The position numbers and the translations under genes were made by a program. The notes beneath the pieces are model-generated. The model made no database searches and had not been told where the DNA came from. It saw nothing but the letters and a program-made list of their open reading frames with translations. 64,000 nucleotides of DNA from Candidatus Gastranaerophilales bacterium (lineage in GTDB: Bacteria > Cyanobacteriota > Vampirovibrionia > Gastranaerophilales > Gastranaerophilaceae): assembly GCA_944323995.1 (NCBI GenBank), contig CALUUN010000006.1, forward strand, positions 2,807 through 66,806. Direction: 5' to 3'. This document shows positions 2,392-44,886 of this stretch, in pieces (the first letter of the stretch is position 1; each line of letters starts with the position of its first letter).

Positions 2392-3813
2392 ATGTCTTTA
2401 GTTAATATAATTTCTGCCATAGGCAACAACAGCAGCATTTATCCTTTAATAGTTCGCGACTGCGGTATAGAAGTCCCGACAAAAATTGCAATGACGTATA
2501 ATCAAAACAAAGAAGACAAACGTATTGCCTGGCTCGGTGCAAGAGAACGCTTTATTGATGAATATTCGGTTTCGGCGGTTTGGCTCGGCGGGATTCCGCT
2601 GATTGACAAAATCGGAAAATCGGCGATTAAAAGAGTCAAAAAATTAGGGCTTAATGCAGATGTCAATATGAAACTTTTTAATAAAGACCCGCTGCAAAAT
2701 ATTGACAAAAATATAAAAGATTTTGCGCAAAAGGCTCCTGATGCGGTTCAGGATTTGATTAACGTAAAACAAAACAGCAAACTGTTTAAAACGTTAATGA
2801 ATACAAAATTCATTGCCTCAATTGCAGTTCCGATTGCGCTGATGGGGTTTGTAATTCCGAAACTTATTTTCGCCTCAACCGCCAAAAAAATGGAAAAATA
2901 TAAAAATGAAAATGAACAGATGAAAAATCTTTCGTTCGGTTCAAAAGATTTTGAGCAGTTTTTAAAGCCCAGAAAAGCAAATATGACCTCATTCCAGGGC
3001 GGTTTGACATCTTTTATCACAAATCTTACAACCGTGCAAAAAATGGCTGTCACCGACGGCGGTTATGCGGCGGGACGTATTATTACGGCAAGAAAAAAGA
3101 ACGAAGCGATTGATCTGGCTTTTAAGTTTTCGGGCATGATGTTTTTGAACTTTGTTGCTCCGCACTGGATAGAAAAGGCGTTCAACTTGATTACGGACGT
3201 AAATCTTGATCCGAAAATGCTTGTAAATAAAAGATTTTTGGCAAGTATAAAAAATAATAATCTTGTCCTTCCAAAGTCAAATTCAGCAAAAGATTTGACC
3301 GAATTTATTGATAACAATCCAAAAGCTCTGTTCACACAGCTTGCCGGCAAATACGGCAAAGTAAAACTTCTGGAAAACGGCGTGAGGGATCCGAGAGCCT
3401 ATGTTGATGTTAAGGAACTTGCAAAATTTAAGAATAATATTGAAAAATTCGCCAAAAATGCAAAAGCCGCAGGCATGAAACCCAAAGCCGCAGGCTTGAA
3501 AGGTCAAAATCTTGATATAATTAAATTTGCGAATAAATCTTTAAGGCTCCGTTCATTGACAATTCTTGCAAATATCGGATTAAGCAGCTTTTTACTTGCA
3601 TACTGCCTGCCAAAAGCCCAGTTCTTATTCCGTGAATGGTATACAGGTTCAAAACTTGAACCCGGGTTAATTGAGCCGGAAAACGTTCAAGCCGCTGAAC
3701 AAGCCGCAGAACAGGAGAAAGTAACACCTGCAGAAACGGTTGAAAATTCAGCTGAGCCGGCAGAAATTTTGCAGGTTGATGAAGAAGTTTTAAACGAAAG
3801 TCAAGCTGCATAG
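2392..3813 (+). CDS. hypothetical multi-pass membrane protein (paralog family with 38387, 39010 and 41425 ORFs)
   Basis: 473-aa track ORF with GGAGG at 2375-2379. Hydrophobic helices include IASIAVPIALMGFVIPKLIF and LTILANIGLSSFLLAYCLP, and the tail is Q/A/E-rich. It shares two sequence blocks with the 41425-43419 protein. Confidence 0.6.
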   Translation: MSLVNIISAIGNNSSIYPLIVRDCGIEVPTKIAMTYNQNKEDKRIAWLGARERFIDEYSVSAVWLGGIPLIDKIGKSAIKRVKKLGLNADVNMKLFNKDPLQNIDKNIKDFAQKAPDAVQDLINVKQNSKLFKTLMNTKFIASIAVPIALMGFVIPKLIFASTAKKMEKYKNENEQMKNLSFGSKDFEQFLKPRKANMTSFQGGLTSFITNLTTVQKMAVTDGGYAAGRIITARKKNEAIDLAFKFSGMMFLNFVAPHWIEKAFNLITDVNLDPKMLVNKRFLASIKNNNLVLPKSNSAKDLTEFIDNNPKALFTQLAGKYGKVKLLENGVRDPRAYVDVKELAKFKNNIEKFAKNAKAAGMKPKAAGLKGQNLDIIKFANKSLRLRSLTILANIGLSSFLLAYCLPKAQFLFREWYTGSKLEPGLIEPENVQAAEQAAEQEKVTPAETVENSAEPAEILQVDEEVLNESQAA

Positions 3814-3845
3814 CAAAAATTATTTTTAGACGGTTTATACAATTT

Positions 3846-4676
3846 GTGAAAATAACCGCCATACAACCCTATAATTTATCTTTTTCTTCAAACTGTAAAT
3901 TTGAAGAGTTTGAGGACGATTATGAAAAACGTCATTTTGCGGATGACTGGGGCGGAAGCAAAGTCCGCGACGCAATAAGGGCGCATTTTTATTCGCAATT
4001 TTTGCCGGACTGTTATTATAACGGTTATACCGTTGTGCCGGGGTATGCACAGAGCCTTGATGATGTTTACATCCCGAATTTGCGCAAAATCGGTCATTTT
4101 TCATATCGGGGTTCATCGCTAGCCAAAAACATCGGATACCTTGATTTGCTGCATAACTCTCAGATAAATACGGTTATTGATCTTGCAGGATTTGATGATT
4201 TGCGGCAGGAGTGTGAAAAAAGAAATATTGAATATTTCCGATATGATATTAAACCCGATTACTGGACTAACGCAATTTTTTACGATAAAGACGAGCTTAT
4301 TGAACGCAAGAAAAACGAGCTGCAGGAAAAAAATTTAAGCGAAAAAGATTATAAAAGAGATATAAACGGTTATGAATGGCGGCTTTTAGAAGAGCGCAGG
4401 CAATTTATGGATGATTTTATCAAACTTGCGGCAGTAATTTCGCACGGTCATTTTTATATAGCATGCGAGCATGGAGAGTACAGAACCTCAAATATTCTGG
4501 CTCTGAACTCGTTTTTTAATCCGTTGAGCCATGTTGATAAAACTTTGCCTACAACCAAATTTATTTTACAGTCGATGAAAAATATGTACAAAAATCTTAC
4601 GGACGAAGAAAAATCAAGGCTCGGATTTAATGACAAGTTTGAAAAAGATTTGAAAGGACAGCTGGAAATATGTTAA
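3846..4676 (+). CDS. putative atypical dual-specificity/tyrosine-phosphatase-like protein (Y_phosphatase2/PFA-DSP-like)
   Basis: 276-aa track ORF with a GTG start. It has the C-x5-R signature ACEHGEYRTS (DNA about 4464-4487) and an upstream block FSYRGSSLAKNIGYLDLLHNSQINTVIDL that resembles the YRS...N..FL..L.IKT(I/V)I.L block of that family. Confidence 0.45.
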   Translation: MKITAIQPYNLSFSSNCKFEEFEDDYEKRHFADDWGGSKVRDAIRAHFYSQFLPDCYYNGYTVVPGYAQSLDDVYIPNLRKIGHFSYRGSSLAKNIGYLDLLHNSQINTVIDLAGFDDLRQECEKRNIEYFRYDIKPDYWTNAIFYDKDELIERKKNELQEKNLSEKDYKRDINGYEWRLLEERRQFMDDFIKLAAVISHGHFYIACEHGEYRTSNILALNSFFNPLSHVDKTLPTTKFILQSMKNMYKNLTDEEKSRLGFNDKFEKDLKGQLEIC

Positions 4677-7092: not shown

Positions 7093-8253
7093 TTGGTAAA
7101 ATGCAACGACAATGCGATTACTACGTCGAATGCTGCGCATTCTCCTCGTAATGACAAGACTGTAAAAAGGAGCGTCGCAATCGCAAAACCGATAAAATGT
7201 GGTAGTAAGCGCAAAAAGGCCGCCTTCACTTTAGCGGAAGTATTGATAACCTTAGCAATTATCGGAATAGTCGCAGCACTGACAATCCCGACACTAGTGC
7301 AGAATTTCCAGCAAGATGCATGGGATACAGCATCTGAAGTATTCCAAAGAAAACTTGAAGAATCGTTAAAGGTTATGAATGTTCAGGGAACCTTAGCAGG
7401 CTATACAACAACAGAAGCATTTGTTGATGAACTTTCTAAACATATTAAGATAACAAGAATATGCGATAACGATGATATTACAACATGCTTTGCAGATAAA
7501 GTTACATGGGGAACAGAGAATGAAGAAGTAGCGATGGCGGATGTAAAAAGAGCATCACACTTCGGACAAGATAGCTGGGGAACAAATACTGTAGGAGTGC
7601 AGTTTGCAAACGGAGTAAATGCAGTATTAGCATATAACCCCGAGTGCGTACAGAACCAGTTTAGTAATCAAATAACAGGAACAAGCTGCTTGGCAATATT
7701 GTATGACGTAGACGGATTTAAGAATCCAAATACACAGAATAAAGATTTAAGAAGTATAAACGTATCAAGTTTAGGCGGAAGTTCATGTTCATTTGAAGTA
7801 GACGGAATATGTTTCGGAACACTTTTCCAACCGACAGCATTAACAGCAGCAGATTGTAATGCAAACAAAGACAAATACGGTATACAAACCTGTAGAACAA
7901 CAGATGACGATTTCTGGGGCGGCGCAATGAAAGCATGTGCAGATCAAGGAAAGCGATTACCGACGGACAGTGAGCTATTAGCATTAGCAAATGATTTATA
8001 CGGTAAAGACATGTCAGGTGGAGACGATGATTTAGTCGAAGGTACCATGGATGAAGACAAAGCAAGCTCATACGGCTTCACTCTCACTGACCTAGGTGGC
8101 GGAATCAGCGGCTTCTACCTGTGGTCCGGTCAGGAGACGGACGCTCGCGACGCGCACGCGCGCGCATTCGGCTCCGTGGGCACGGGCTGGCTCTCGAATG
8201 GCGACAGAGACGGCTCCGTCCCGGGCTTCTGGGCGGTTTGCGTAGGTGAATAG
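7093..8253 (+). CDS. pilin-like protein (prepilin-type N-terminal methylation-like motif) with DUF1566/C-type-lectin-like C-terminal domain and VR-like tail, copy 1
   Basis: KKAAFTLAEVLITLAIIGIVAALTIPTL. The C-terminal domain reads WGGAMKACADQGKRLPTDSELLALAND...FYLWSGQE...AVCVGE. The start is uncertain: the track uses TTG 7093, and an in-frame ATC at 7180 lies 7 nt after AAGGAG (7167-7172). Confidence 0.75.
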   Translation: MVKCNDNAITTSNAAHSPRNDKTVKRSVAIAKPIKCGSKRKKAAFTLAEVLITLAIIGIVAALTIPTLVQNFQQDAWDTASEVFQRKLEESLKVMNVQGTLAGYTTTEAFVDELSKHIKITRICDNDDITTCFADKVTWGTENEEVAMADVKRASHFGQDSWGTNTVGVQFANGVNAVLAYNPECVQNQFSNQITGTSCLAILYDVDGFKNPNTQNKDLRSINVSSLGGSSCSFEVDGICFGTLFQPTALTAADCNANKDKYGIQTCRTTDDDFWGGAMKACADQGKRLPTDSELLALANDLYGKDMSGGDDDLVEGTMDEDKASSYGFTLTDLGGGISGFYLWSGQETDARDAHARAFGSVGTGWLSNGDRDGSVPGFWAVCVGE

Positions 8254-8264
8254 CAGCAGACTAG

Positions 8265-8285
8265 CCTCTCCCCTTGTGGGAGAGG
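8265..8285. repeat. perfect 8-bp-stem hairpin CCTCTCCC-cttgt-GGGAGAGG, 12 nt after the stop codon; repeated at 27327-27347
   Basis: The arms are exact reverse complements. No T-run follows, so it is not a canonical terminator. An identical 21-mer lies downstream of copy 2. Confidence 0.8.
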
Positions 8286-8290
8286 CCTTG

Positions 8291-8335
8291 CTTACGTTGG
8301 TTCGCTTTACTCCTCAAGGTGGGAGGGGATTTCAG
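8291..8335. repeat. dispersed repeat cttacgttggttcgctttaYtcctcaagg..gggag..tttcag
   Basis: A near-identical copy lies at 27552-27596 and a partial copy at 27515-27546. Confidence 0.75.
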
Positions 8336-9827: not shown

Positions 9828-12617
9828 ATGCTTAGAGTCAATCCGATAACAAATACAGGATGCAAAAAGCCTGAATATCGTCAGGCGTTTACGTCGTCAC
9901 CTCAAATTCAAACGCAAAACGAGGTGCCCTCCGCTCTGCCTGATTACAATGTTAAAGTGCCTATGGCTTATCAAAAAGCAGGTGTCTTAAATCTGCCGTT
10001 TGATTTTGAAGCTCATTGCTACAAATTGGCAAACGGCCAGCGGGTTGTTATACTTCCAAAAGAAGGCGAAACTGTCGTTAAAACTTATGTCAGTACCGGC
10101 TCCATGAATGAGCCCGACAAAGTCCGCGGAATAAGCCATTACATTGAACACAACCTTTTTAACGGTTCTAACGGTTTAGAAGCCGGCGAGTTTTTTGATA
10201 CGGTTAATAAAATGGGCGCTGAAACCAATGCCTCTACAGGGTTTGCCGAAACTAATTATTATATAAGTTCAAATCTTCTTGATGATACCGATCTTGAAAA
10301 GAAAATTAAAATCCATGCCTCTATGCTTGAAACCCCGCGTTTTGCGCTTGAAATGCTGGAAAAAGAAAAAGGTATCGTAAATTCCGAAATTAATATGATT
10401 CTGGGTGATCCCGAAAATATAGCCGCAAATGAAACATTGAAAAAATTATACAATATTAAAAGCACCTCGGGCGATCTTATCGGCGGCTCTACCCAAAATA
10501 TTACCGCACTTACAAAAGAAGATGTTCTGGATTATTACAACAACAATTACTATCCGGCTAATATGGTAACCGTTGTGACCGGTGAAGTTAATCCTGATGA
10601 AACAATAAAACTTATTGCAAAATATTTTTCGGCTCCGAATAAGGTTTCGCATTCAAGAAAATTTGAAGAACTTATTCCGGTAAATAAAACCGTCCGGCAG
10701 GATTTGATTTCGGATAAAACAGCCGCAACGCATATTATGCTCGGTTTTAACGGCCCTAAAAATAATGACGTAAAATCAAGAGTTTTGATGAATGCGATTG
10801 AAGAACTCTTGACCGCCGGAACAATCGGAAGATTTTCCAAAAGCCTGAAGGATTACAACGCCTATGCGTCTTTCAATTGCGAAAAAGTAGGCTCCCGTCC
10901 TGCTGACAATCAGGCTATCCTTATAAGTACGGAAACTTCTGAAGAAAATTCCGAAAAAGTGTTGAAAACTCTTTTTGAACAAATAAATTCAATCGTTACA
11001 AATCCTCCGGGTGACGAGGATTTGAAACTCATAAAAAAAACACTCCTTAACGGTTATTCCCATGCGTTTGAAGTTTCGCATTCCATTAATGATATTATCG
11101 GAAGCAACCTTTTAACCGGAACGCCTGAAATGTTTACCGATTATAAAAAAATCGTAAATTCAATTACTCAGGAAGATATCGTAAATGCAGCAAAAGAGTT
11201 CCTCAATCTAAATAAAACGGTAGTAACAGTTTTGCATCCGCAGACTGCAAACAAGGATTCCATTGTGAACAGGTACAAAAATGCAGTGTCCTTCAGCGGA
11301 AATGTTCAAAAACAGGTTATTAATCCGGAAAATGTAAAAAGATACATTATGCCGAATAATTTTGAAATCATTACAAATGATACAAAAACCGACAATTCGG
11401 CTTGTGAAATAGTATACAATACAGATCAGTTTGCAAAAACCAAACCCGCTGCAATACCGCTTTTGTCAGCTTTGTTGAATGAAGGTTCCAAATTCAGAAA
11501 TGATGTTGATTTTGCGGATGATATGCACAAAAACGGTATTAATATTTACTTCAGCTGCGGAGATTCCGAAATTATCGCAAATGCTGAATTCAGCGCTGAT
11601 GACATGCAAAAAGCTCTTTCATCACTTAAAGAAGTGCTTTTAAATCCGAGATTTAATGAAGATGTGCTTAATCATTTAAAATCAGAACTCAAAGAAAAAC
11701 TTGAAATTCGGGAAAAAAATGTTAATAACAAACTCTACAAAGAGCTTTTCAAAAATCTTCCGATAGGATATACGAAAGAAGATATCTTGAACAGTATTGA
11801 CGATGTTACGGTTGAGGATTTAAAATCGCTCTACTCTTTTATTCTGAACTCTGCACAGGGACATTTGACGGTTTCTGCACCGTTTAAAACAAGACCGGAA
11901 TTGTTAAATGCGGTCTTTAATGAAACAGCGGCTCTGGCACCGGTAAAACCTGCCGGAAGTTTTAAAAGAGATATTTATGAACCCGTAACCGAAACTAAAG
12001 TTCTTGTCGATACCCATGACAAAAATCAGGCACAGATTGTTGAAGCGTATAAATTTAAAATTAACGGTAATGTGAAAGATTACACAACGGTAAGCCTTTT
12101 AAATATTATCCTCGGCGGCAATGCTTCTTCAAGATTGTTCAATGACCTGCGTGAAAAACAGCAGCTTGCCTACAGAGTTAATTCAAAAGTAAATTATAAC
12201 GACAATACCGGTGTCATTAAACTTCAAATAGGTACAACCACCGAAAACAAAGACACCAATGAAATAAGTTATGACAATGTTCAAAAAGCAATTAACGGTT
12301 TTAACAAACATATCGAGCGGATTAAAACCGAAAAGGTTTCAAATGAAGAACTTGAAAGTGCAAAAAAATACCTCAAAAACACGCTTATAAATAACGCTGA
12401 AACAACCTCCGGCAAAAATGAGGTTCTTTCTTATTGTTCATTGAGATTCCACAGTGCGCTTTCTGATAATGAAGTACTCAAAATTATTGACGGGATTACG
12501 CCTGATGATATCTACAATGCGGCAAATTATATTTTCAGCGGCAAGCCGACCTATTCCGTACTTGCCACCGAAAATACAATAAAAGCAAATCAGGATTTCT
12601 TTAAAACTTTAGCTTAG
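9828..12617 (+). CDS. M16 (pitrilysin/insulinase) family zinc peptidase, double-length
   Basis: 929 aa. HxxEH zinc motif in ISHYIEHNLFNGS. There are two tandem M16-like halves and an unusual ~60-aa N-terminal extension MLRVNPITNTGCKKPEYRQAFTSS. Confidence 0.8.
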   Translation: MLRVNPITNTGCKKPEYRQAFTSSPQIQTQNEVPSALPDYNVKVPMAYQKAGVLNLPFDFEAHCYKLANGQRVVILPKEGETVVKTYVSTGSMNEPDKVRGISHYIEHNLFNGSNGLEAGEFFDTVNKMGAETNASTGFAETNYYISSNLLDDTDLEKKIKIHASMLETPRFALEMLEKEKGIVNSEINMILGDPENIAANETLKKLYNIKSTSGDLIGGSTQNITALTKEDVLDYYNNNYYPANMVTVVTGEVNPDETIKLIAKYFSAPNKVSHSRKFEELIPVNKTVRQDLISDKTAATHIMLGFNGPKNNDVKSRVLMNAIEELLTAGTIGRFSKSLKDYNAYASFNCEKVGSRPADNQAILISTETSEENSEKVLKTLFEQINSIVTNPPGDEDLKLIKKTLLNGYSHAFEVSHSINDIIGSNLLTGTPEMFTDYKKIVNSITQEDIVNAAKEFLNLNKTVVTVLHPQTANKDSIVNRYKNAVSFSGNVQKQVINPENVKRYIMPNNFEIITNDTKTDNSACEIVYNTDQFAKTKPAAIPLLSALLNEGSKFRNDVDFADDMHKNGINIYFSCGDSEIIANAEFSADDMQKALSSLKEVLLNPRFNEDVLNHLKSELKEKLEIREKNVNNKLYKELFKNLPIGYTKEDILNSIDDVTVEDLKSLYSFILNSAQGHLTVSAPFKTRPELLNAVFNETAALAPVKPAGSFKRDIYEPVTETKVLVDTHDKNQAQIVEAYKFKINGNVKDYTTVSLLNIILGGNASSRLFNDLREKQQLAYRVNSKVNYNDNTGVIKLQIGTTTENKDTNEISYDNVQKAINGFNKHIERIKTEKVSNEELESAKKYLKNTLINNAETTSGKNEVLSYCSLRFHSALSDNEVLKIIDGITPDDIYNAANYIFSGKPTYSVLATENTIKANQDFFKTLA

Positions 12618-25848: not shown

Positions 25849-26127
25849 AAAACAGTAGTACGACACAAGAGCAACGAAAGGGGCTAAAAGTATGATGAAT
25901 AGTGGATTTCAGCCTAAATGGGGGGGGGTACTTCTTTAAGCTCTCACCGTGCGGGTTTCGGGGTATTTTGGAGTAAAGCGATAAGCAAAAGCACCGCGCA
26001 GAGTGCATTTGCAGACTCGGTAAATTGCAACGATAATGCGATTACTACGTCGAATGCTGCGCATTCTCCTCGTAATGACAAGGGATACAACCCTCTACCT
26101 TTGGGAGAGGGTGGCACGCAGTGCCGG
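25849..26127 (+). promoter_or_regulatory. long conserved 5' leader (copy 2) with mini-ORF 25892-25939, a G9 tract (25920-25928) and palindromic repeats
   Basis: Near-identical to 6865-7038. It continues with the element aatgcgattactacgtcgaatgctgcgcattctcctcgtaatgacaag, which is shared with 7113-7158. Confidence 0.55.
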
Positions 26128-27162
26128 GTGAGGGTCAAAAAGGCCGCCTTTACTCTTGCGGAAGTCCTGATAACTCTTGCGATTATAGGAATAGTCGCAG
26201 CATTAACAATCCCGACGTTAATTCAGAATTATCAAGAAAGAGCATGGAACACAGCATCACAGGTATTCCAGAGAAAACTCGGCGAAGCATTAAGGGTTAT
26301 GAATGTTCAGGGAACCTTAGCAGGTTATACAACAACAGAAGCGTTTGTTGATGAATTATCTAAACATATCAAGATAACAAGAATATGTGATAACGATGAT
26401 ATTACAACATGCTTTTCTGATACCGTAACCTGGGGTGATGAAGAAGTTGATATGTCTAAAGTTAAAAAAGCAAAAAACTTCGGACAAAACGACTGGGATA
26501 CAAACACGGTAGCAGTACAGTTTGCTAATGGCGTTAACGGCGTAATAGCATACAATCCGGATTGCAGACAGAACCAATTCAGTAATGATGTAATAACAGT
26601 AGGAGAAACCGGAATAGGCACAGATTGTCTTGCAATATTATATGACGTAGACGGATTTAAGAACCCTAATACCGAAGGTAAAGATTTAAAGAATCTAAAC
26701 GTAACAAGTTTAGCAGGCAGCAACTGTGCAATAGAACTAAGTGACGGAACATGCTTTACCGCACCATTCTATCCAACAGCAGTAACAAAAGCAGAATGCG
26801 ACCAATTAGTAGCAGAGGGTTATCCGATAAAAGAGTGTTATCACGAAAGTGACCGCTGGGCCGGCGCAGTAAAAGCATGCCATGATATGGGCTCAAGTTT
26901 ACCGAGTGATACAGAACTGATGAAACTTGCAGAAGAGTTATATAAAGACGCAAGCGGGGCGTCACTCACAGACAACAGAAATAACGACCTTGCAGTATCA
27001 ATGGGATTTATCTCCTCTCCCGGCAGTCCGTTTTACCTGTGGTCGAGTGAGGAGTACAGCAAGTACTACGCGTACTACCGCTACTTCAACTCCGCGCACA
27101 CGTACCGGAACTACAGCAGCCGCATCAACAGCAGCAATCAGGCGGTGTGCTTATGTGATTAA
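26128..27162 (+). CDS. pilin-like protein with DUF1566/C-type-lectin-like C-terminal domain and VR-like tail, copy 2
   Basis: The in-frame GTG at 26128 gives MRVKKAAFTLAEVLITLAIIGIVAALTIPTL. The C-terminal domain reads WAGAVKACHDMGSSLPSDTELMKLAEELY...FYLWSSEE...AVCLCD. The track ORF extends to ATG 25918 through the leader. Confidence 0.75.
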   Translation: MRVKKAAFTLAEVLITLAIIGIVAALTIPTLIQNYQERAWNTASQVFQRKLGEALRVMNVQGTLAGYTTTEAFVDELSKHIKITRICDNDDITTCFSDTVTWGDEEVDMSKVKKAKNFGQNDWDTNTVAVQFANGVNGVIAYNPDCRQNQFSNDVITVGETGIGTDCLAILYDVDGFKNPNTEGKDLKNLNVTSLAGSNCAIELSDGTCFTAPFYPTAVTKAECDQLVAEGYPIKECYHESDRWAGAVKACHDMGSSLPSDTELMKLAEELYKDASGASLTDNRNNDLAVSMGFISSPGSPFYLWSSEEYSKYYAYYRYFNSAHTYRNYSSRINSSNQAVCLCD

Positions 27163-27181
27163 ATTTTCCAATTCCTAATTC

Positions 27182-27206
27182 GCGCGATTTTTCCAGAAAA
27201 TCGCGC
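27182..27206. repeat. perfect 10-bp-stem hairpin GCGCGATTTT-tccag-AAAATCGCGC, 20 nt after the stop codon
   Basis: The arms are exact reverse complements with a 5-nt loop. It is followed by cccgcc with no T-run, so it is not a canonical terminator. Confidence 0.8.
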
Positions 27207-27207
27207 C

Positions 27208-27258
27208 CGCCAAGGGCACCGTGGCTCCTGCCTCTGCTCGGCTTGCTTAGGTGATTGA
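27208..27258 (+). pseudogene. vestigial third copy of the VR-type 3' end (reads ...GSCLCSACLGD-stop)
   Basis: cgc caa ggg cac cgt ggc tcc tgc ctc tgc tcg gct tgc tta ggt gat tga. The 20-mer at 27244-27263 matches 27148-27167 at 17 of 20 positions (17 of the 19 positions spanning tgctta..aattt), and the ending parallels tgc gta ggt gaa tag of copy 1. Confidence 0.55.
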
Positions 27259-27326
27259 ATTTCTTTGTTTTAATAATGCGGTATTTGTAACTTTCCACAA
27301 GTGCCGCTTTTTTAACAGCTGAATTT

Positions 27327-27657
27327 CCTCTCCCCTTGTGGGAGAGGCAGAATTTCAACACGAGGAACGAGTGTTAGAAATTCAGGTGAGGGGTAATTTG
27401 AGAACTTCATGCATATTTAGACCCCTCACCCGCATTTGTAGTTCACTGCGTTCACACAACTGCGGCCTCTCACCTTCACTTTGTTACGGAAGCAGGCTCA
27501 CACAACTCGTTCCTCGTTGGTTCGCTTTGCTCCTCAAGGGGAGAGGCTATTCTTACGTTGGTTCGCTTTATTCCTCAAGGGGGGAGGGAGTTTCAGGCAT
27601 ATCAGTACCGCAGCAATGCGATTACCACGTCGCTTTGTGCTTATCGGATAATGACAA
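27327..27657. repeat. cluster of nested palindromic/dispersed repeat elements (noncoding, GC-richer)
   Basis: Contains hairpin 27327-27347 (identical to 8265-8285); inverted repeat 27356-27376 with 27499-27519; a 9-bp stem 27385-27393 with 27422-27430; repeat copies at 27515-27546 and 27552-27596; and element 27615-27657, related to 7113-7158 and 26036-26081. Confidence 0.75.
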
Positions 27658-38386: not shown

Positions 38387-39013
38387 ATGAGTATATCAAA
38401 TACACTTGAAAAAATATGCACCTCCATGGGTAAAAATAACAAGCCGACTTACGTTGTAATGGCTATTGCAACGGTTAAAGGGATTTGTCGGCCTATGTTT
38501 ACCATGATGGATAAAAAGGAAAACCCTGAAACTAAAAAATATACGGCAATAAGAGAAGGATTAACAGAGATTATAGCAATTCCCGTATACTGGGCATGCG
38601 GCGAGGTGGCCGGAAAATTATCCAACTTGTTTGCAAATCCTAAAAATTTCATGGATAAGGCTTTGTACAAACAATATAAAAGCGGTCAAAAATCTCCCGA
38701 AGTCGTTAAAGCGTTTGAAAGAGCTAAAGAATTGGCCGAAAATAATCTTCCGAAAATGAATAAAAACCTGATGTTTATGGGAGTTTGCGGAGCTGCTTTG
38801 TTTGTAATTCCGGCATTATGTTCGGCTGCAATCAAACCTTTGATGAATAAAATTCAAAAAAATGCCAAACCCGCGGAAAAAACTTTGGATATTAATACTC
38901 AAGCTCCTGCTCAGGTGAATTTTTATACTCCGAATTTTCAGCACGGTGAAACATTCAAACGTATGTCAATTTCTCCTGACAGAGTATACGGCATGAAAGT
39001 AGGTGGCGTATGA
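38387..39013 (+). CDS. hypothetical membrane protein, tandem paralog 1
   Basis: TVKGICRPMFTMMDKKENPETKKYTAIREGLTEIIAIPVYWA aligns with the next gene's product. Confidence 0.6.
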   Translation: MSISNTLEKICTSMGKNNKPTYVVMAIATVKGICRPMFTMMDKKENPETKKYTAIREGLTEIIAIPVYWACGEVAGKLSNLFANPKNFMDKALYKQYKSGQKSPEVVKAFERAKELAENNLPKMNKNLMFMGVCGAALFVIPALCSAAIKPLMNKIQKNAKPAEKTLDINTQAPAQVNFYTPNFQHGETFKRMSISPDRVYGMKVGGV

Positions 39014-39651
39014 TAAGTGCTATAGCTAACGGATTGTCAAATTCGACACTTGCAAATATTGCTCAAAATACGGCGGCGTCCGTTTCAATTGAAACAACTT
39101 TAAAATCAATAGGCCGTCCCGGATTTATCCTGATTGACAACGACATAAGCCCTGATACAAAAAAATATGCAGCGGCAAAAGAATTCTTATATCAGGCAAC
39201 ATGTCTTGCCGTATATCTGGCTTTAATTACGCCGGTATTCAAAAAAGGCGCGTTTCAACTTGCAAAGAAAACGTTTTTCAAAAATAAACCCGAATTTGCT
39301 AAATTTAAAGACGCTGCGGAATATTTGGATTACCACAATCTGGCGTCAAAAAACATTACAAACCGCCGCGCAACTCTGTTAAAAGATCATTCACGCCAAA
39401 AATTTATGCATGATGACCTGCGCGAAGAATTACAAAACAACAAAAATCCTGAAAAATATCCGTTAATCAAAGGAACAATTGAACTCGGTTCTTTAATCGG
39501 TTCGGTTCTCGGGCTTGCAATTCTTGCTCCGCAAATCAGCCACTATACAATCCATCCGATGCTGAGAGCTCTCGGTATGGAGAAAAAAGAACCGAAGGAA
39601 TTAAAAGAACAGCAGCCTGTTCCTGCGCATAAATTAGACAAAGAGGCTTAA
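39010..39651 (+). CDS. hypothetical membrane protein, tandem paralog 2
   Basis: TLKSIGRPGFILIDNDISPDTKKYAAAKEFLYQATCLAVYLA. ATGA start/stop overlap with the previous gene. Confidence 0.6.
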   Translation: MISAIANGLSNSTLANIAQNTAASVSIETTLKSIGRPGFILIDNDISPDTKKYAAAKEFLYQATCLAVYLALITPVFKKGAFQLAKKTFFKNKPEFAKFKDAAEYLDYHNLASKNITNRRATLLKDHSRQKFMHDDLREELQNNKNPEKYPLIKGTIELGSLIGSVLGLAILAPQISHYTIHPMLRALGMEKKEPKELKEQQPVPAHKLDKEA

Positions 39652-41424: not shown

Positions 41425-43419
41425 ATGTCAGTAAAAGCAGTACAGTTAGCAAACGCGGAAACAAAGCGTAATTATAACAATAATCAGCAGAAACATAACA
41501 ATGTTTCATTCGGTAATGCGGGAAATCCTGTTATCACATTAATGGATGCAATAGACAGAGGCGGTTTTGCCGCATCGTTTATTATGCAGGATTTTTTAGG
41601 CATGGCCGGCCCGCGTGTTTTGACAGGCATGTACAGAAACCATGACAAAACCGGTCAATTGAACTGGGATTTTGCCAAAAAAGAAGGTATCAGAGAAATT
41701 TTAAGCGGTCCGAGTGCGTTTTTAATTCCGGCGGCTATGATGTTCGGAATTAAAAAAGTTTCGGGCACTGCAAATAATGTTCCGGTTGATTTTATTAACG
41801 GTTTCGGACACACTTTTGCGGAATATGCAAAAGCTAATAAGGCAACTCTTTCGGATGCGGCAAAAACAAAGCTCGGATTTTACGAAGAAGTGTTCAAAAA
41901 TATGCTTTCCGCATCAACCAACAAAGGTCTTGCGGGAGAAGAATTGGACAAAACAGCAAAAGAATTTGCCCAAAGGCTTATAGAAGCTGAAAAAGCTCCG
42001 AAAAAGAGTTTTTGGAAACATCTTACCGGTAAGCACGTAAAAGGTTCGGCTCAGGATTTGCAGCATGAGCTTATGGAAGATTTTGTAACCCGCCGCAAAC
42101 AATTTTTGGGAGCGGAAGGCGACAAAGTTATTGCCGAATACGGGGTTCCGAACGATAAAAAGATTGCATCTTCCTTCAAATCAATGCTGAAGCATATGGA
42201 AGATTATTCACATGATGCAATAAAAAGTGTGAATAAACAGCTTAAAAAAGCTCAGAACGCGGATGTTGACGAAATAGTAAAAACCTTGAGCAAACGCCGC
42301 ACCGGCACGCGCTTTTTATCTAATATCGGTATGTGGCTTGCTGTTGTAGGTTTTTATACAATTATTCCTAAACTTTACAACCATGTAACCAAAGGCCGCG
42401 ACCCCGGACTGGACGGTCTCGGAGTTCAGGATGAAAATGTTAAAAAGTCTGCCAACCCGACTTTTTCAAACGAAAAAGAAGTGACAGACGGCAAAAAAGA
42501 TGATAAAGCTGCCGATAAAAATGCTCAGCCGTCATTTACAGGTATTCAGAGTTCAATGGCAAAATTAGGCAAGACTGTTGTTGATACGCCTGCTGTTAAA
42601 AAATTCTCAAATGCGTTTGAATTTGACGGTGCAACAATGTCTATGCCGGCAATGCTGACATTGCTTTTCGGGTTCTGTCTGCCGCCGAGGTTAATTCATG
42701 CGCAGAGCAGCACTGACAGAAAAGAAATACTTATGCGTGATATAACAAGTTTCCTTGCTATATTATTCGGTTCAAAAGCAATTAACAGAGTAAGTTCAGA
42801 CATATTTGCAAAAGAATCCGGACTTGCGTTGAATATCAAACCGGCAAATCATAATGACAATATTTTCAAAAAAATATGGCATTATATCTACCCGACCGGC
42901 GGTGTTCAGGTGCTTGACAGCGACAGAATTGTTTCAACTTACAGCGATGTTTCGTCATTCAAAAACGGTATAAACGATATGTTCAGATTTGTCGATAAAA
43001 ACGGCGGCAACGTCGGTAAAATGCTCGGTATTGATAAAGATATCAAAGCTGCGGCATCTGAAATTCTCGGCAAAGCGCCCGATAAACGCATGAATCTCAA
43101 TGAAATTATAAAAGCGTTTGATAAAGCTAAAGATACCGACGCTTATAAGAAAATTGTCGATATTCTCGCAGATAAAGGCAACACAATCGTAAAACGCGCT
43201 AAAACTTATAACAGTGCTTTCGGATTTGCGTCAACCGTGCTTCTTGTACCGGCGTTGATGATATGGATTTCAAAACACTGCGAAAAAATGACAAAACAGC
43301 ATATTGCGGAACAGAAAAAGGCCTCAATGGAAAATATGGCAAAACAAACTCAGGTGCCGGATTCAATGAGGGTTGTAACAAACAAACCGACAATGGCAGG
43401 GTTTTTAAACAGAGCGTAA
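41425..43419 (+). CDS. large hypothetical membrane protein (paralog family with 2392 ORF)
   Basis: 664 aa. Shared blocks are FLGMAGPRVLTGMYRNHDKTG...KKEGIREILSGPSAFLIPA and PRLIHAQSSTDRKEILMRDITSFLAILFG. It has a C-terminal TM helix. Confidence 0.6.
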   Translation: MSVKAVQLANAETKRNYNNNQQKHNNVSFGNAGNPVITLMDAIDRGGFAASFIMQDFLGMAGPRVLTGMYRNHDKTGQLNWDFAKKEGIREILSGPSAFLIPAAMMFGIKKVSGTANNVPVDFINGFGHTFAEYAKANKATLSDAAKTKLGFYEEVFKNMLSASTNKGLAGEELDKTAKEFAQRLIEAEKAPKKSFWKHLTGKHVKGSAQDLQHELMEDFVTRRKQFLGAEGDKVIAEYGVPNDKKIASSFKSMLKHMEDYSHDAIKSVNKQLKKAQNADVDEIVKTLSKRRTGTRFLSNIGMWLAVVGFYTIIPKLYNHVTKGRDPGLDGLGVQDENVKKSANPTFSNEKEVTDGKKDDKAADKNAQPSFTGIQSSMAKLGKTVVDTPAVKKFSNAFEFDGATMSMPAMLTLLFGFCLPPRLIHAQSSTDRKEILMRDITSFLAILFGSKAINRVSSDIFAKESGLALNIKPANHNDNIFKKIWHYIYPTGGVQVLDSDRIVSTYSDVSSFKNGINDMFRFVDKNGGNVGKMLGIDKDIKAAASEILGKAPDKRMNLNEIIKAFDKAKDTDAYKKIVDILADKGNTIVKRAKTYNSAFGFASTVLLVPALMIWISKHCEKMTKQHIAEQKKASMENMAKQTQVPDSMRVVTNKPTMAGFLNRA

Positions 43420-44796: not shown

Positions 44797-44886
44797 GGAG
44801 TAATGGCCGAGTGGCTGAAGGCGGCACCCTGCTAAGGTGTTATGTGGGTCTAACCTGCATCGAGGGTTCAAATCCCTCTTGCTCCG
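44797..44886 (+). tRNA. tRNA-Ser (anticodon GCU)
   Basis: Hand-folded cloverleaf: acceptor GGAGTAA/TTGCTCC, D arm GCC..GGC, anticodon stem GCACC/GGTGT with loop CTGCTAA, a long variable arm, and T arm GAGGGTTCAAATCCCTC. Confidence 0.85.

Follow-up and report, generated by a model that had tools for sequence, protein, structure and literature searches.

Positions 27029-27153 of the window, the whole 64-kb stretch of DNA analysed here, are in our judgement (probability about 0.92) the variable region (VR) of a gene that is targeted from a distance by a diversity-generating retroelement (DGR) on the chromosome of an uncultured Candidatus Gastranaerophilales species. The gene that bears this VR, hereafter copy 2, is a genuine DGR target, and the retroelement that serves it is canonical in mechanism and in parts, i.e., of a known type. 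What is distinctive is its pilin-like host protein, its taxon, the many scattered paralogs, the poly-G tracts at the 5' ends of these genes, and the contrast between a target that is active in cis and a remote target that is static. Gastranaerophilales are gut-dwelling, non-photosynthetic relatives of cyanobacteria; the present analysis places a complete, apparently active DGR among them, and our search of the literature found no paper joining DGRs with Gastranaerophilales.

The variable tail and its template

The tract in question makes up the last 43 codons, at the 3' end, of the copy 2 open reading frame (Table 1). On direct recount, 22 of the 28 codons at 27055-27138 have the form NNC and 8 are TAC, exactly as an earlier sequence-only reading of this DNA had counted them, and their translation is YSKYYAYYRYFNSAHTYRNYSSRINSSN. 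Of the 374 remaining codons in this frame, 20.6% are NNC, with a mean of 5.5 and a maximum of 9 per 28 codons; against this background, taken from the frame outside the tail, the binomial tail probability of at least 22 NNC codons in 28 is 8e-11. G+C content, ~0.35-0.45 over the gene body, climbs to 0.52-0.56 in the tail. The stretch homologous to the template (TR) described below, 27029-27153, is slightly wider than the codons originally flagged. A protein identical to the copy 2 product (P0001) is encoded on 15 contigs.

The sequence-only reading had seen no reverse transcriptase (RT) near the gene, and the window indeed holds neither an RT nor a TR: an adenine-tolerant ungapped scan of both strands for a TR found no candidate with fewer than 29 non-A mismatches, a scan for the YxDD motif gave no RT-like ORF, and Pfam scans of ORFs of at least 150 aa returned no RT. 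Seven related loci from GTDB genomes were likewise without an RT or TR within 10 kb. Exact-pattern scans of IMG/VR and JGI metagenomes, queried with the TR as predicted and with a VR scaffold whose adenines were masked, gave 0 matches in these collections, which are without this lineage, and a protein search with the translated predicted TR gave no candidates.

The lead came from a cluster of proteins at 90% identity (P0043), in which the body is identical and the tail is different in nearly every member. On a contig of the same species that carries a P0043 gene (L014), the gene order is target gene, bAvd, a 125-nt TR, RT and a second pilin-like target. This TR had been predicted from comparisons of VRs in four tails before it was discovered, and the real TR matches the prediction except in one codon. 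In all 10 RT loci compared, it precedes the RT start by 353 nt. The L014 RT carries the motifs IGNLTSQ and YVDD and matches Pfam RVT_1; its best match in the PDB is 8ub7_A ("Reverse transcriptase", E 3e-37), which we take to be the bRT of Bordetella phage BPP-1. The adjoining Avd matches Pfam bAvd (PF22296) at 62.9 bits, above the 40-bit cut-off (E 5e-17), and the NCBIfam model NF033474 (DivGenRetAVD) at 70.8 bits (E 1e-19), below its curated cut-off of 80 bits. A search of the cassette against Rfam returned nothing. The RT and TR that were to be sought in the full genome have thus been located as one full cassette, on contigs of the same species and not in the window.

We infer that the genome holds the Avd-TR-RT cassette at another place, outside the 64-kb window. 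The copy 2 gene and the RT cassette co-occur, with matching coverages of 34.7 and 40.1, respectively, in sample BRZ_NA and of 12.0 and 12.7 in BRZ_NN, but never on one contig; it is this co-occurrence and coverage that support placing the two in one genome. Several metagenome contigs break off at one end or the other of copy 2 (L009 ends at window position 27369; L010 and L040 start 17-26 nt before 25918), presumably because pilin gene bodies and hairpin repeats recur, and these breaks are what keeps the RT locus and the window from assembling together. For annotation, the repeated gene family thus explains assembly breaks at pilin-like genes.

The copy 2 tail was compared with the L014 TR base by base. 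Over the core, 27037-27153, the two differ at 12 positions, all of them TR adenines (12 of 43 adenines vs 0 of 74 other bases; Fisher p = 2e-6), and non-A differences occur only at the edges of the core, namely GG to AC at 27035-27036 and G to T at 27154. AAC, which the sequence-only reading had inferred as the underlying codon before any template was available, is what the real TR has at those codons. The copy 2 tail is therefore a true DGR variable region, as that reading had proposed: a TR exists, and 12 of the 12 core differences fall at its adenines.

The same pattern extends across the family. Homologs of the copy 2 protein number more than 3600 and combine a fixed scaffold with a hypervariable tail; with x for a free position, the tail scaffold reads F-W-L-W-S-S-E-E-x-S-K-x-x-A-Y-x-R-x-F-x-S-T-x-T-x-R-x-x-x-x-R-x-x-S-x-x-Q-A-V-C-L. 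When four tails taken from separate genomic settings are compared as DNA, nearly all differences fall at codon positions one and two of NNC codons. Among 91 distinct canonical tails, entropy is at least 2.76 bits at all 18 AAY codons of the TR, and Tyr is the commonest residue at 15 of these 18, whereas all but five of the adenine-free codons stay below 0.7 bits.

By analogy with the BPP-1 paradigm, an RT-Avd complex would reverse-transcribe TR RNA with random misincorporation opposite adenines, and the resulting cDNA would replace the VR, guided by the G+C-rich 3' end common to TR and VR and possibly by a hairpin downstream. Each of the 18 AAY codons in the TR could thereby come to specify 15 different amino acids, but not a stop, for ~1e21 possible tails, with the diversified residues placed in a putative ligand-binding, C-type-lectin-like domain of a type IV pilin-like protein. 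For copy 2, retrohoming would have taken place in trans.

Activity in the population and origin of the tail

An identical RT protein is encoded on 65 contigs. Across 10 RT loci from different samples, compared as assembly consensus sequences, the RT gene is without a variable nucleotide and the 117-nt TR core is identical, whereas the RT-adjacent VR is different in all 10, with 170 changes at A sites vs 4 at other sites; variable columns number 37 in the 117-nt VR vs 5 in ~2580 nt of flank. With a hypervariable VR beside an RT and TR that are identical throughout, the element is active at its cis target.

Copy 2 behaves otherwise. The exact gene is present in 10 samples, with 0 nucleotide differences in its 1245 nt. 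Between BRZ_NA and BRZ_NN, the RT-adjacent VRs differ at 23 sites and the copy 2 VR at 0; over 21 kb, the flanks of the window clone are identical in three samples. At the consensus level, therefore, we found no ongoing diversification of the copy 2 VR in those 10 samples, and this VR, a product of the DGR, is at present quiescent. It is now fixed, either as a poor substrate or as the stored product of an earlier event. A single population thus offers a natural contrast, in which the RT-adjacent target changes from host to host and a remote one, whose 3' flank is the same, is fixed; it is a useful setting in which to ask which properties render a DGR target competent in trans.

The 3' end of the tail bears on how it came to be where it is. 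Past 27153 the VR diverges from the TR. At 27154 the window has T where both the TR and the RT-adjacent VR have G (RT-adjacent VR, TTAGGTGATTAA; window, TTATGTGATTAA). Twenty nucleotides past the stop codon, within the flank that copy 2 has in common with the RT-adjacent target, stands a perfect 10-bp hairpin at 27182-27206 (GCGCGATTTT-TCCAG-AAAATCGCGC), with a DNA fold of -19.1 kcal/mol (z = -3.2). From 27224 onward, the related strain L028 matches the window at 98.4% identity and has the same fossil of an older VR end, while its pilin gene is only 81% identical and its junction different; tails or whole genes have thus been replaced at this locus by recombination. When orthologous VR variants were sought by way of the HD-domain gene that neighbours copy 2, L028 was the one syntenic strain; it was rejected as a strict ortholog since the whole gene is replaced. 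P0119, considered as an orthologous locus, was rejected as an unrelated one.

These observations invite the reading that the tail was not written in place: a diversified RT-adjacent allele, along with its 62-nt flank, would have been copied in by recombination or gene conversion, with diversification proceeding mainly in cis and the remote paralogs forming an archive of variants. The flank argues for it, being identical to that of the RT-adjacent target and ending abruptly at 27224, as do the older VR fossil that follows directly and is common to L028 (with its 81% identical pilin gene and different junction) and the static state of the copy 2 VR in a clone whose cis VR changes. Other remote paralogs, however, carry a 3' flank of another kind (TTAGCGGAATAG with an AGCC-GCAA-GGCT hairpin), and still nearly all their differences from the TR fall at adenines; the 90% cluster of P0112 (L041) contains two VR variants that differ only at AAC positions, at a locus with no RT within 2.7 kb upstream (to the contig end) and 10 kb downstream; and identity to the cis target over the copy 2 gene body is just 83%, so that any conversion tract must have been short. 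For the copy 2 tail this origin is possible but doubtful: the tail may be a copy of one at the cis locus and not a product of retrohoming on the spot. As a general rule for remote paralogs, the other flanks and the P0112 variants speak against it. It is unlikely, on the other hand, that copy 2 is still an active trans target whose consensus is kept constant by rare mutation or by strong selection against variants. Its common G+C-rich 3' end and hairpin are intact, and the sampled clone is extremely recent, three samples being identical over 21 kb; yet between BRZ_NA and BRZ_NN the RT-adjacent VR has changed at 23 sites and the copy 2 VR at none, and the G-to-T change at 27154 falls in the boundary element.

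An explanation with no retroelement at all would make the tract an ordinary compositional feature, i.e., a Tyr/Ser/Asn-rich, low-complexity tail of a DUF1566-like domain. The compositional bias of the tail and the lack of an RT or TR in the window could be read in its favour, but it is refuted by a matching TR that adjoins a DGR-type RT and Avd, by mismatches that are confined to adenines, and by the hypervariability of the RT-adjacent copy among strains, and its probability is negligible. With copy 2 read as the remote target of a DGR, the alternatives put forward in the sequence-only reading, action in trans or a decayed or dormant system, can be apportioned. Since the cassette is remote, the element would act, or would once have acted, in trans; the copy 2 VR is unchanged in 10 samples; dormancy is favoured at copy 2, with the system active elsewhere in the population, as the RT-adjacent VRs attest.

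The host protein, its paralogs and their poly-G tracts

The copy 2 protein begins as a type IV prepilin. It matches PF07963 (N_methyl) at 25.2 bits (cut-off 21.2) and TIGR02532 at 22.6 bits (cut-off 16.3), and its prepilin motif, A/FTLAEVLITLAIIG with the slash at the cleavage site, has Glu at +5 and is followed by a hydrophobic helix. Copy 1, a paralog 19 kb upstream in the window, also has a prepilin N-terminal motif above the Pfam and NCBIfam cut-offs. In most paralogs and homologs the leaders are short and of the MKKxG/F type (MKKxG/FTLAEV). The copy 2 leader is ~76 aa as called, vs 5-21 aa in paralogs, and contains copies of a hairpin repeat inserted in frame that translate as ..NPLPLGEGG... 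Near a pilin-like paralog in L015 there is a gene for a T2SSE-family ATPase. The copy 2 protein would be displayed on a pilus and may act in adhesion. The analysis also identifies thousands of unnamed "N_methyl" proteins in gut metagenomes as DGR targets.

The C-terminal domain, which holds the VR, is confidently modelled as a C-type-lectin or Lcl_C-like fold. An AlphaFold2 model of the last 150 residues has a pLDDT of 93.8 and a pTM of 0.87. Foldseek matches this domain to the CLec-fold domain of Bd2740 of Bdellovibrio (probability 1.00, E 5e-3) and to the C-terminal domain of Legionella Lcl (8q4e, probability 0.87), as well as to snake-venom C-type lectins (snaclecs), and Mtd is among the structural matches when the full-length model is searched; the E-values of the fold matches are all 5e-3 or weaker. 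Bd2740 is described as a CLec variant of which Mtd is the only trimer-matching homolog (PMC10769870). The label DUF1566 given to the domain by the sequence-only reading is weakly supported, by the fold (the Lcl match above) more than by the sequence: the domain scores 15.0 bits against Pfam Lcl_C (PF07603, formerly DUF1566), vs a gathering cut-off of 34.9 (E 0.031; profile positions 24-107 of 117), and the full-length protein gave no match to Lcl_C at E < 0.1.

The copy 1 and copy 2 ORFs are 74-96% identical in DNA over most of their length. The possibility that both draw on one template, raised in the sequence-only reading, did not hold up, as the copy 1 VR has 26 non-A mismatches to the TR found here (class A), which puts it in a second class of VR (class B). 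The class B scaffold is F-x-LWSGQETDAR-x-AHxRxF-x-SV-x-T-x-W...AVCVGE, and VRs of this class vary at their own NNC codons, as seen in copy 1, in L014 (14230-15492) and in L022 (4037-5299). Some strains have a class B target directly downstream of the RT, and others have a 72-aa ORF there. No class B TR was found in any of the loci examined, and a MAFFT alignment of the 3' regions of copies 1 and 2 was uninformative. A third pilin-like paralog, P0006, lies in the same clone (L015 10001-11272), ~5 kb left of the window start and ~10 kb from copy 1 on its upstream side. Compared with the TR, the P0006 VR is longer by two codons, and all five members of the P0006 90% cluster have it in identical form.

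Most pilin-like paralogs carry a tract of G8-G12 at the 5' end, even in species only ~55% identical. In the RT-adjacent gene of different samples the tract is G10, G9 or interrupted (GGAGGGGGGG), and the length of the called ORF shifts with it (419 or 394 aa). In copy 2, an ATG at 25892, with AAAGGGG upstream, is out of frame at G9, with a stop at 25937-25939; a tract of G10 would bring it into frame. As judged from these lengths and frames, the tract may be a slipped-strand phase-variation switch. Also around the pilin genes are G+C-rich hairpin repeats (e.g., CCTCTCCCCTTGTGGGAGAGG), which flank them and recur at other loci. As for the rest of the window, its sole Rfam match is one tRNA gene at 44797-44886, and several sizeable ORFs (664, 208, 213, 473 and 276 aa; window 41425-43419, 38387-39651 and 2392-4676) have no Pfam match.

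Taken together, we would tentatively picture one chromosomal DGR, with a single RT and two or more classes of template, that serves a large family of type IV pilin-like paralogs scattered over the genome, with on/off switching through poly-G tracts and exchange of tails by gene conversion, and with the remote copies as a stored repertoire; although doubtful at present, such an arrangement would, if true, amount to a three-layer surface-variation system of retro-mutagenesis, phase variation and cassette shuffling.

Table 1. Coordinates of the features discussed (positions in the window unless a contig is named)
Feature	Position	Strand	Basis or remark
Copy 2 target gene, type IV pilin-like with C-terminal variable domain	25918..27162	+	ORF as called, 414 aa; true start uncertain
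Poly-G tract (G9), 5' end of copy 2 ORF	25920..25928	+	comparison with paralogs
Prepilin N-terminal cleavage/methylation motif, then hydrophobic helix (AAFTLAEVLITLAIIGIVAAL)	26137..26205	+	PF07963, TIGR02532
C-type-lectin-like (Lcl_C-like) predicted ligand-binding domain bearing the VR	26710..27159	+	AlphaFold2, Foldseek
VR, class A, 125 nt	27029..27153	+	position-by-position comparison with L014 TR (12166-12290)
A-site substitutions in copy 2 VR	27064, 27067, 27076, 27082, 27094, 27097, 27103, 27112, 27116, 27119, 27125, 27134	+	TR comparison
VR 3' boundary: G+C-rich block common to TR (CAGGCGGTGTGCTTA), then VR-specific sequence; IMH-like	27139..27175	+	TR comparison
62-nt 3' flank	27163..27224	+	62/62 nt identical to RT-adjacent target flank, L014 11261-11322
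Fossil of older VR 3' end (TGC TTA GGT GAT TGA = C L G D stop)	27225..27260	+	comparison with L028 (~4207-4243)
Intrinsic terminator-like hairpin and T-run downstream of gene	27278..27313	+	also follows paralogs in other genomic contexts
Copy 1 paralog, class B VR ~8113-8241	7093..8253	+	repeat families D1-D6, N_methyl motif
Hairpin repeats	8262-8285, 27328-27350, 27387-27433, 8278-8335 / 27539-27596, 25978-26140		
Poly-G tracts elsewhere	L018 7502-7511; L019 7503-7511; L016, L017 ~7500; L028 3003-3014		
Poly-G tracts elsewhere	L002 9867-9875; L004 906-914; L005 9526-9534		

Comparison with known systems

The closest model is the DGR of Bordetella phage BPP-1 (Mtd, bRT and bAvd). Both have a cassette of target, Avd, TR and RT with adenine-only differences between TR and VR, and in both the VR stands at the 3' end of a gene for a C-type-lectin-fold protein and AAC codons are the units of diversification. 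A G+C-rich 3' end common to VR and TR, with a hairpin downstream of the VR, is also found in both, the corresponding block here being IMH-like by its sequence. In terms of structure, the best solved match of the L014 RT is 8ub7_A, and Mtd is among the fold matches of the target. The BPP-1 element, however, is phage-borne, whereas the present one is chromosomal, with the same housekeeping flanks in 10 samples; its target is a tail fibre, whereas here it is a pilin-like cell-surface protein, and remote targets are many.

Cyanobacterial DGRs are said to serve multiple remote targets per RT. As relayed by PMC11661182, the study of Vallota-Eastman et al. 2020 (PMC7517822) describes elements that resemble the present one in having one RT, a chromosomal location, and VRs in multi-domain targets; in the account given there, the binding domain is joined to signal-transduction domains, whereas its partner here is a pilin N-terminus. 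Of the domains that hold VRs, a 2024 survey counts a GspG-type pilin domain with the peculiar and scarcely represented ones. Nearer in habitat is the Bacteroides DGR, which is likewise chromosomal in a gut commensal, has pilus-associated putative adhesins as targets, and shows VRs that differ between hosts. The present target differs in its type IV prepilin N-terminus (PF07963), which belongs to an unrelated pilus system, and the organism is a member of the Gastranaerophilales; neither type IV pilins nor Melainabacteria appear in the text of the Bacteroides DGR paper.

With the family of the Legionella Lcl C-terminal domain (PF07603), the likeness is one of fold (8q4e, probability 0.87) together with a weak Pfam alignment, and the difference is one of sequence: at 15 vs 34.9 bits, the copy 2 domain is not a member of that family on sequence grounds. 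Lastly, pilin variation in Neisseria combines gene conversion between pilE and pilS, the latter being silent donor cassettes, with phase variation at homopolymer tracts. The system described here resembles it in its many pilin paralogs, in the evidence for cassette replacement, and in 5' poly-G tracts whose length varies between strains. It differs in that phase variation is here a putative contributor, and in that the main source of diversity is a retroelement.
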